Shown here piece after piece: positions 13,801 to 16,800 of a stretch of 64,000 nt of DNA. Each line of letters opens with the position of its first letter. Position 1 is the first letter of the stretch. This stretch comes from Pocillopora damicornis (taxonomy: Eukaryota): contig NW_020844892.1 in NCBI RefSeq assembly GCF_003704095.1, forward strand, positions 186,001 through 250,000, in the 5' to 3' direction. The notes beneath the pieces were generated by a model. The model was not told where the DNA came from, made no database searches, and was given only the letters and a program-made list of their open reading frames with translations. The translations under genes and the position numbers were made by a program.

Positions 13801-16800
13801 GCTTTGTCATTGGTAAAATATATGTCCATTCCTGCATCAGAGAATAAAACAAACCACACACTCAGTTGTGCACCAAAATGTTGTGGTTGATGTGTGAGTT
13901 CATTAGTTTATCAATATAAATGTCACATCACCTTTAACCCTTTAACTCCCAACATTGCATTTAGTAATTCCCCTGTCTGTCAAATGATTCTCATTATGTT
14001 AGTATGGAGAATTTGGTATTGGATCAATTATTTATCCCATCATTGATATTTTTCTTTATTCTCATCACTTGTACAGCTAAAGTAAGGAGAAATTCTGTCT
14101 TGGTCAGTCATGGGAGTTAAAGGGCTAACATATTTTGAAGTGACACTTTTAAGGGCATACATTTAAAGGAGAGTAACAAAATAATCCATTCAAATACTTG
14201 ATCCTAAAAGAACTCATAATTGTTGTACTTGAATGTTCACATGAGTGTGATTAGATATTTTGAAACATCTTGGGTATTTCACATTTGATACATTGAAACC
14301 TAAACAGACCCAACATTTAAGAGGCCTGTATCATTTAAAACAGTATCTGAGAGCTATAGTATCATTTGACACTGTGAGTAGGAGAAATCCATGAAGTTCC
14401 TGCACTGGTAATAATTCAATGAAACAGTTACAACGGTAACCTGTGAGTTAAGTGTTAAATCTGAAGGAGCCACTTTCCAGACACCCCGAATGGCAAAGCT
14501 CATCTGAAGCCACATGTAGAAGCCCTCACAATCACATTGTCTGTAGCAATGGACATAGTACACCTAGGATAGGGGGCATAATTACAGAGACTGCAGTCTC
14601 CCTTATGGGTGACCCTAAAAGCTGGAACAATGGAAGAACGGAATGGCAGAAAATGACCCCAAATCCTAAAACATGGAGTGGGGGAAAATGACCCCAAATC
14701 CTAAAACACAGAACAGTGGAAAATGACCCCATATCCTAAAATACGGAATGGTGGAAAATAACCCCAAATCCTAAAACACAGAAAGGATGTCATGTTGCCC
14801 AAACTGTTTGTACAAAGGCACTCAAGCGCTTAGCATATTCATCCCCACGACGATAACGTGTGTGACTAAAATCAAGTGTTATTAATTTCTTTTCCTTTAC
14901 TGAAAGGTATGAATAATAATGAACCATTATGCACAAAAGATGGCTACATTTTCATGTTGTAAACCTGTTTAATTACCTTTTGTTATGCTACATTTACCAA
15001 GAGTTTTAATTGCAGCATAAAAAGTCACACAACATGTGAAAACCAACTTGACATACCACATTACAATAAACAATTGTAACTTTGATACGTTTCCTGGTCA
15101 TGTCTGCATTGATTTAATGAAACAACAATATACATATGCTTGTAAATGTGAGAACATAACAGCGTTTTCAGGCTTCTCAAAAGATAACGACATTCAGCCC
15201 CAGCTCCAAACTTAGACTAGCATGCGAGCAGGCCCTCATTATGAGTCCTTCAATACGAATGTTTCTTCATCCACAAATACGTTTTAGGCCTTGAGTAACA
15301 CTAGGTGAAGAGAGGTTTGCAAGGGGTCCTGCACATGGGAATTTCTCAATGGGTGAAAAGGCAAAAGAAAGTTAGCAGAAGGTAGCCATTAAAAGGAATT
15401 TGAAGAATTTCTTCTCGACCAGGTGTCCAAAACAAATCGTCAACTCTAGGGTGTTTAAATTGCCCTTCCTGAAAGGGAAGTATAATTCAGACGGATCTCT
15501 GGATTGTCATGGTCTACCATTATTTGCACGGGAACAGTTGCAAGACAAAGAAGAGGCTACCGGTCAAGGATCCCATGGTTTGGTTTTTGTGGCAAGAAAC
15601 AATTCTGAGAAGGTTGTAATCAAGAAGCTATTAGGTGGAGATGAGAACAAAAAGCTTCTTTTCCCCAAAGAAGCAAAAATACTCCATGGGATTAAAAGTG
15701 AGCATAAAGTTAAGTTTAAAGCTGTGTGCATGGAACTGTTTGCAACAATGCTTGAATATTTGTTTTTCGACTTCACTCCCTTTGGCAGCTCAGAAATTGT
15801 TAGCAGTCTGGACCAATTTCTTTCACAATTTTTTTAAACAATTTTTTACAACTGAACTAATGAGGAACACTTTGCGAATAGTAGTTGCAAAACTTCTTTA
15901 CTCTCAGACACATTTCGTCTAGCTGTCGTAGACTTCTTCAGGGAGTTTTACAAGTTGAAACTAAATGCCTGTATTTATAAGCCATAGTTAGAGGCTATAC
16001 AGGGGCCAGTGACCATAGAGGCTCGACCAAACATACGAACAGGAGCAGGCGAAGTTGTGAAAAATTTGAAAATTTTTTGCACAAGGTGAGAAAAATATTT
16101 TGGGGGCCATGGTTTTAGAAGATTTAAAAAAAATTTTAAAAATAAAAAAATAATTAAAATTAAAAACAAAAAACATGACATCAGTTCTGCGTTTTAGGAT
16201 TTGGGATCATTTTACACTGTTCCATGTGTTAGGATTTGGGGTCATTTTCTGCCATTCCATGTTTAGGATTTGGGGTCATTTTCCACCATTCTACCGTTCT
16301 GGCTTTTAGGGTCACTCCTCCCTTATGGCTCATAGAGTTTTGCCTGTCAAACAATTTGCTTCCCTCCTTCCAAGGATTATGGCTATGAAATGGAGACCGA
16401 ATACTGTAATCCAGATTTATGGTACATGTTTATTTGAGGTGACAGCATTGACTCAAAGTATGGTTGTCAAAATGAAACTAAACTGCCAGTCCTGTGCAAT
16501 GACAAGGACCAAAAATGATGAATGAAACACTAGGAGGAAGAGATAATACACACTGTCTGACATTAATGATAAACAACCAAGGGCAACCAGCCATCATGAT
16601 TCAGTTCTGGAACATTCCATACTGCAACCTCACATCAGATTTCAATCTTGAGAAGGTTTTTGAATTGCAACACCAGTCAAGAAAATACTGTGATCAAGTT
16701 CAAGGTGAACTCCTTGAAATTTTGAATAAACATTCTGTGGAGAATTATCTGTAGTGTAGACTGATCAAACCCCCTAAGAACCACTCTGTCAAGATTATAT

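Follow-up and report, generated by a model that had tools for sequence, protein, structure and literature searches.

A Mutator-like insertion in the coral Pocillopora damicornis probably carries a remnant of its own predicted kinase-deubiquitinase-transposase gene

An insert of 1711 bp was found at positions 14607-16317 of the window (the whole 64-kb stretch of Pocillopora damicornis DNA that was analyzed). This insert is very probably a copy of a Mutator-like element that has lost internal sequence and is non-autonomous, and the kinase fragment within it likely represents the 5' part of the gene of the element itself, because coral, anemone, and jellyfish relatives of this kinase join a kinase, a viral-tegument-like deubiquitinase (VTD) domain, and a Mutator-like transposase in one protein. 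The intact gene is thus predicted to encode a kinase-deubiquitinase-transposase. The first-pass annotation had described the insert as a Mutator-like element that might have captured a fragment of a host gene (Pack-MULE). The first half of this reading is supported by 9-bp duplications in two copies, an 8-bp duplication in another, and the Mutator-like character of the family's transposase. The second half is not, and the insertion in the window is itself ordinary debris, not gene capture. The assignment to Mutator-like elements (MULEs) was based on the ends, the duplication, and sequence motifs.

The boundaries of the insert are sharp. When both strands of the whole 64-kb window were searched, the 9-bp sequence CTCCCTTAT was detected only at 14598-14606 and 16318-16326, the left and right target-site duplications, which bears out the 1711-bp insert and exact duplication originally described. 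The insert ends are GGGTGACCCTAAAAGC and, as reverse complement, GAGTGACCCTAAAAGC, and the family terminus is GGGCGACCCTAAAAGC. The left terminal inverted repeat (14607-14783, plus strand, 177 bp) is composed of the ~30-bp terminus GGGTGACCCTAAAAGC and 4.2 tandem copies of a 35-bp unit (14638-14783), and the right one (16193-16317, minus strand, 125 bp) of 2.9 copies of a 34-35-bp unit (16193-16291) and the terminus. Both start with G (GGG/GAG) and are built of repeats, as had been noted; only the unit size differs from the earlier figure of ~37 bp. Seven unit matches were found in the window versus none in 100 shuffles. These units are likely to be transposase-binding sites. Tandem units are also the building blocks of the foldback ends of Phantom-type MULEs, which resemble those of the window element. 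No transposase was found inside the insert, in agreement with the first-pass annotation.

Next to the left inverted repeat is a non-coding interior (14784-15447, plus strand) common to other copies of the family, as indicated by alignment to two of them (L035 and L048). From its position, it likely serves the element's gene as promoter and 5' leader. Sequence comparison placed the 5' kinase remnant, ~123 codons, at 15448-15817 on the plus strand. The stop-to-stop frame containing it (15376-15837) gave weak Pfam kinase matches that do not reach the curated cut-off (PF07714, E 3.7e-4); its identity to full kinases is 66-69%, so that the kinase N-lobe frame reported before holds. The remnant starts at the kinase's own start codon (15448-15450), which is AGG in the window copy versus ATG in three sister copies. 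It covers the N-lobe and hinge only; because the HRD and DFG motifs are absent, the remnant is, by its motifs, catalytically dead, and the window copy encodes no working protein. The window piece groups with P0002-P0004 (support 100) in a kinase tree, which was built by a quick search only, contains no host kinases, and is silent on the origin of the kinase.

Downstream of the remnant lies a separate, high-copy repeat of ~300 bp with a hammerhead-like core (15815-16118, minus strand), which on its own accounted for more than 20 matches. The same kinase-to-repeat junction is present in three other copies (L036, L059, and L046). Therefore, as far as the junctions tell, the repeat joined the kinase remnant before the derivative spread, and the chimeric derivative itself appears to have moved several times. 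The core (CTGAAGA...GAAA) was observed in four of ten sequences scanned and in one unrelated match. Fold z-scores of -0.23 and 0.11 gave no statistical support for a hammerhead fold, and no Rfam match to the repeat was found. By size and core motif, this repeat is a candidate retrozyme or Penelope-like sequence. It shares its size range and hammerhead-like core with the coral non-LTR retrozymes and Penelope minimal hammerheads of PMC7229834; on the other hand, it is dispersed and occurs in inverted pairs, whereas the coral retrozymes form tandem arrays. The repeat was also found at five other loci (L011, L015, L017, L018, and L019), contains a TATA-like box, and frequently occurs as inverted pairs.

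The first-pass annotation had cautioned that the kinase could belong to a nested insert. A nested sequence, the ~300-bp repeat, is indeed present, but it is located on the 3' side of the kinase piece, which falls outside it. The two nested ends that had been suggested were examined at 16 loci and rejected, since alignments of other copies cross both: six copies align over at least 185 of the 200 bases centered on 15218, and eight loci over at least 180 of the 200 bases centered on 15997.

The element is located between two minus-strand coding stretches of a host allantoicase gene, one upstream of the insertion at 18594-18872 (profile positions 23-91, E 1.1e-27) and the next at 13700-13861 (profile positions 102-141, E 4e-7). 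Thus, the insertion appears to be intronic, and the kinase remnant would be antisense to the host gene. Contigs bridge the left junction in X1 and X5 and the right junction in X5 and X13. An empty-site allele, which had been proposed as a check, was not detected: none of 15 inspected joints from four sequencing runs, which have 27 further joints, skips the element. As these runs were chosen because they contain the stretch, this says little.

Several other features of the surrounding DNA were observed. A very high-copy short repeat lies just left of the element (~13930-14130), with a summed contig depth in the thousands-fold range; loose ends are numerous there in each of the four runs. The right flank at 16422-17105 is almost uncovered by contigs in X1 and X4 and fully covered in X5 and X13, which could reflect an allele difference or a filter effect. 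Upstream of the allantoicase stretch, a zf-RVT match (19677-20090, minus strand, E 5e-9) reveals the remnant of a LINE. Further away (62402-63156), a 126-bp unit, a multiple of three, is repeated in six tandem copies and is likely a coding repeat.

A DNA search of the genome with the insert yielded 95 matches from 40 scored candidates, and a search with the left end yielded 44. The exact 16-bp terminus was present at 17 places in the genome versus none for a reversed control. Seven two-ended copies were identified among those fetched. Whether other copies also bear duplications had been left to be checked, and they do so in part: besides the 9 bp of the window copy, exact duplications flank L032 (9 bp) and L052 (8 bp), and no exact one is present in the other four of the seven. 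L031 and L054, on different contigs, have one low-complexity 9-mer in common. L035 and L048 match the element at 79% over its positions 138-828, and the interiors of the copies represent one common sequence that has been variously deleted and inverted.

The kinase piece was found at 60% identity or more at eight loci (tblastn-type search; 18 matches, 24 candidates), seven of which have the family terminus within ~2.5 kb. The eighth (C4160) has decayed, with stops in frame, and begins at an assembly gap. The next kinase relatives in the genome are only 36-47% identical, and no element-free host parent above ~47% identity was found in this gapped genome assembly; the parental host kinase that the capture hypothesis called for was thus sought without success. 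In the sister copies of this genome, the kinase starts 563-799 bp inside the terminus. A sister copy is situated between an inverted pair of GST genes and a NERD-domain frame (L059:923-1783, 3291-4127, and 6038-7093). A search for an autonomous MULE with these ends had also been suggested. This assembly yielded no intact autonomous copy and, for an intact transposase, only decayed or distant matches; the best genome match to P0040 (C715) lacks the family terminus.

Full-length relatives at 66-69% identity are coral proteins of 329-568 aa that are multi-copy and have been automatically named as host kinases. In metagenomes, the terminus (GGGCGACCCTAAAAGCCGGAA) and the unit array were found upstream of the kinase at four of ten loci from coral, where 1301-1396 bp separate the terminus from the kinase start codon and the frame is open. 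Each of these four loci has a different left flank and hence represents a different insertion site; the remaining six are short or diverge before the terminus. Comparison of the seven copies of this genome with three of these coral metagenome copies gave dN/dS values of 0.14-0.37 in all 21 pairs, versus 0.19-0.87 among this genome's own copies, although the alignments are short and dS may be inflated by CpG decay. Such a pattern is consistent with active masters being under selection while the copies decay. Neither the kinase nor the terminus had a match in the viral collection. In the prokaryote genome collection, one terminus was detected on a bacterial MAG contig (L113:1-1993), whose units are 90% like those of the coral metagenome copies and whose interior has no kinase or transposase matches; this contig is likely host DNA contaminating the MAG bin.

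A full scan for relatives of the kinase revealed 247 clusters at E 1e-30 or better. Among 154 relatives examined, 19 have at least 680 aa, and 14 of these contain a transposase-like tail (5 do not), whereas most shorter relatives end after the VTD domain. Five of the longer proteins (1219-1617 aa) cover 91-98% of P0002. Named hosts of the fusion are the sea anemone Exaiptasia diaphana and the scyphozoan jellyfish Sanderia malayensis, and the nearest full fusion is only 41% identical to P0002. P0002 possesses the G-loop, the VAIK Lys, and the HRD and DFG motifs, and its structural model (pLDDT 91.5) comprises a kinase (fold Z 29.2) and a second domain. A rough pattern search detected HRD-like and DFG-like motifs in 37 of 49 proteins of at least 500 aa.

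The middle domain was modeled from a homologue, P0279 (pLDDT 90.4). The best matches of this model were VTD structures: 8add (Z 18.2, rmsd 3.1, 190 aligned), 2j7q (Z 15.4, rmsd 3.8, 193 aligned), and 8adb (Z 12.7), and Foldseek gave E 2.2e-6 for the middle domain against VTD structures. The VTD His is invariant, and the Cys and the preceding Asn are present in at least 90% of 37 aligned rows. The domain is therefore predicted to have the papain fold of VTDs and to be a ubiquitin-cutting enzyme. A different arrangement was observed at L065 (2291-4977 and 7893-9899) and L072 (3-4195; G000:C3576), where an open 353-aa kinase relative precedes a 510-aa frame, a long frame rich in repeats, and two JAB-domain matches; a further mobile cassette or a domesticated copy are possible explanations.

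The transposase-like tails fall into two groups. Ten tails (group A) contain the motifs IDPTFN...TDGE...RCxxH...E, which the alignment generalizes to D-x-T-F/Y, T/M-D-G-E, R-C-x-x-H, and a conserved E. A DDE triad with CxxH after the second Asp is a MULE signature. Five group A proteins matched the Pfam MULE domain (E 1e-4 to 4e-3), and one the SWIM domain; over all proteins, seven matched PF10551 at 18-23 bits, compared with a curated cut-off of 27.6, and no such match was found in P0321 or group B. The latter comprises four tails (P0044, P0223, P0268, and P0277), which are putatively MULE-like, by their motifs only. No BLAST match was found between the tails of the two groups in either direction, and they carry the same kinase-VTD module. 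This suggests that the module may have moved between transposon lineages at least once. A PDB search with two transposase frames gave no match, neither to a solved Mutator transposase nor to another entry. Merlin/IS1016 elements also generate 8-9-bp duplications and were considered as the source of the linked transposases; however, no IS1016/IS1595 Pfam match was found in these proteins, and their MULE matches speak against such an origin.

At locus L040 of this genome, the terminus of the window element is joined to the beginning of such a transposase. A splice acceptor follows 230 bp after the terminus (at 3356), together with a coding piece that is frameshifted and matches the group A profile (E 6.6e-7); the second part of this piece is 94-97% identical to P0321/P0320. 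P0321 continues into IDTTFN, the first catalytic Asp motif, matches the group A profile at E 5.8e-61, and has the transposase part of the Sanderia fusion as its closest match (7e-37). Of the catalytic motifs, P0321 retains the first D and the E region, but the second D falls within a deletion. In P0329, the same transposase piece leads into a reverse terminus. At four more distant loci of this genome (L061, L075, L077, and L078), kinase or VTD remnants are followed by transposase remnants on the same strand. A stop codon closes the kinase-VTD frame of the closest family shortly after a conserved splice donor, in three of three contigs. This donor is of phase 2, as is the acceptor at which the transposase exon of L040 opens; between the two exons lies a 41-nt exon-like piece that shifts the phase. 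No spliced joint and no loose end were found at the start of the L040 transposase in the RNA contigs, one of which covers the acceptor unspliced, and no single contig with the terminus, kinase, and transposase of the window element's family was found. Thus, the fusion in the closest family rests on predicted splicing.

These observations bear on an unlikely but serious alternative, namely that kinase-VTD is a standing passenger gene which encodes its own protein beside a separate, unfused transposase gene. In the closest family the frame does end at 568 aa, followed by small exon-like pieces, no transposase was found within up to 3.2 kb downstream, and many relatives of 550-620 aa lack a tail. 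The short relatives, however, come mostly from sources whose gene calls probably stop at introns, the kinase-VTD exon has a phase-2 donor in the three contigs and the transposase exon of L040 a phase-2 acceptor, and 14 relatives are single fusions. A true Pack-MULE, in which the first exon of a host kinase gene was picked up by a non-autonomous Mutator-like element that then multiplied, is extremely unlikely. Although the anatomy fits at first sight (a 9-bp duplication, a transposase-free interior, and a gene fragment), the fragment begins at the kinase start codon, an open kinase lies behind the same terminus in other coral DNA, its relatives are fused to transposases, and the genome assembly yielded no close element-free parent. 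Some NCBI relatives do have host-like names such as "cyclin-dependent kinase 9-like," and the terminus-free L065, with its open frame, is 36-38% identical.

It is also conceivable, and very unlikely, that the kinase came from another mobile element (e.g., a Helitron/Helentron, a type known to carry VTDs) that was nested in, or borrowed by, the window element. Pfam detected neither helicase nor Rep domains in the 19 long relatives, 14 of them have DDE-like tails, and the nested ends once proposed are crossed by other copies. On the other side, the same kinase-VTD module occurs on two unrelated transposase groups, and Helitron-like pieces are located 10 kb from remnant L067 and 1.4 kb from remnant L081. 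These pieces (L067:2-2154 and L081:3264-3668) comprise OTU, STPR repeats, and a Rep-like FPxLFP motif. In addition, Erven et al. (2022, PMC9741609) report VTDs mostly in Helitrons.

The preferred reading, in which the kinase comes from the gene of the element itself, was compared with known systems. Invertebrate MULEs have 8-11-bp duplications, long ends, one transposase frame, and a SWIM finger, and cnidarian ones include the Ghost sub-group Cnidaria and MuDR-6_HM, which carries an OTU gene (Dupeyron et al. 2019, PMC6446971). The family of the window element is similar in its 8-9-bp duplications, its long ends, and the SWIM domain in relatives; on the other hand, neither a kinase nor a VTD is found among the MULE groups in Table 1 of that paper, and its main text does not contain the word "kinase." Like the Pack-MULEs and animal Pack-TIRs described in the text of Tan et al. 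(2021, PMC8277862), the window element is non-autonomous, has a gene-like fragment between its ends, and exists in several copies with differing duplications. Pack elements as defined there require a parental host copy unlinked to the transposon, whereas the assembly yielded no host parent for the cargo of the window element, which likely derives from the gene of the element itself. The KI-MULE cited in the same text carries a Ulp1-like protease; in contrast, the proteins described here have a protease of another fold and, in addition, a kinase, with both domains belonging to the transposase chain. The middle domain resembles the VTD deubiquitinases of PMC9741609 in fold and in the conserved Cys and His. 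That article mentions cnidarian VTDs fused to "several transposon-associated domains"; its transposon VTDs are in Helitrons, and "kinase," "Mutator," and "MULE" occur 0 times in its main text and three supplementary files. We found no report of a kinase-VTD-MULE architecture in the open literature (Repbase and subscription journals being outside this scope), and the kinase-deubiquitinase-transposase architecture seems to be undescribed.

If the kinase is the 5' end of the element's own gene, the autonomous master would be arranged as terminus, promoter, kinase, VTD, spliced linker, transposase, and terminus. Deletion derivatives could have arisen from it during gap repair after excision. One derivative would have kept the first ~123 kinase codons, gained the ~300-bp hammerhead-like repeat, and been mobilized in trans to at least four sites, one of them the allantoicase intron. 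In the intact protein, the VTD tethered to the transposase might deubiquitinate the transposase or the chromatin where the cut is made, and the kinase might phosphorylate the transposase or host repair and silencing proteins; together they would keep the transposase alive and active. Such protection or tuning of the transposase is a tentative prediction, to which we give slightly less than even weight. The main alternatives are self-cleavage by the protease domain and action of the two domains on unrelated host signaling.

Ubiquitin-system proteases (OTU, Ulp1, and VTD) in transposons are already known. A kinase that is catalytically complete by its motifs and under purifying selection in a transposase chain has no precedent in the literature searched. 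With this architecture, it can be tested directly whether host phosphorylation and ubiquitin signaling are rewired by a DNA transposon to protect its transposase. We consider it fairly probable that cnidarians host an undescribed, old, and diverse set of cut-and-paste transposons which combine a kinase, a deubiquitinase, and a DDE transposase in one chain, thereby supply signaling and anti-degradation enzymes of their own where DNA is cut, involve at least two unrelated transposase lineages, and leave decayed copies annotated as host kinases in coral genomes. Coral and anemone gene sets list members under the names "CDK9-like," "MAP3K7-like," and "high affinity nerve growth factor receptor"; therefore, the kinase counts of coral and anemone genomes likely include transposons.
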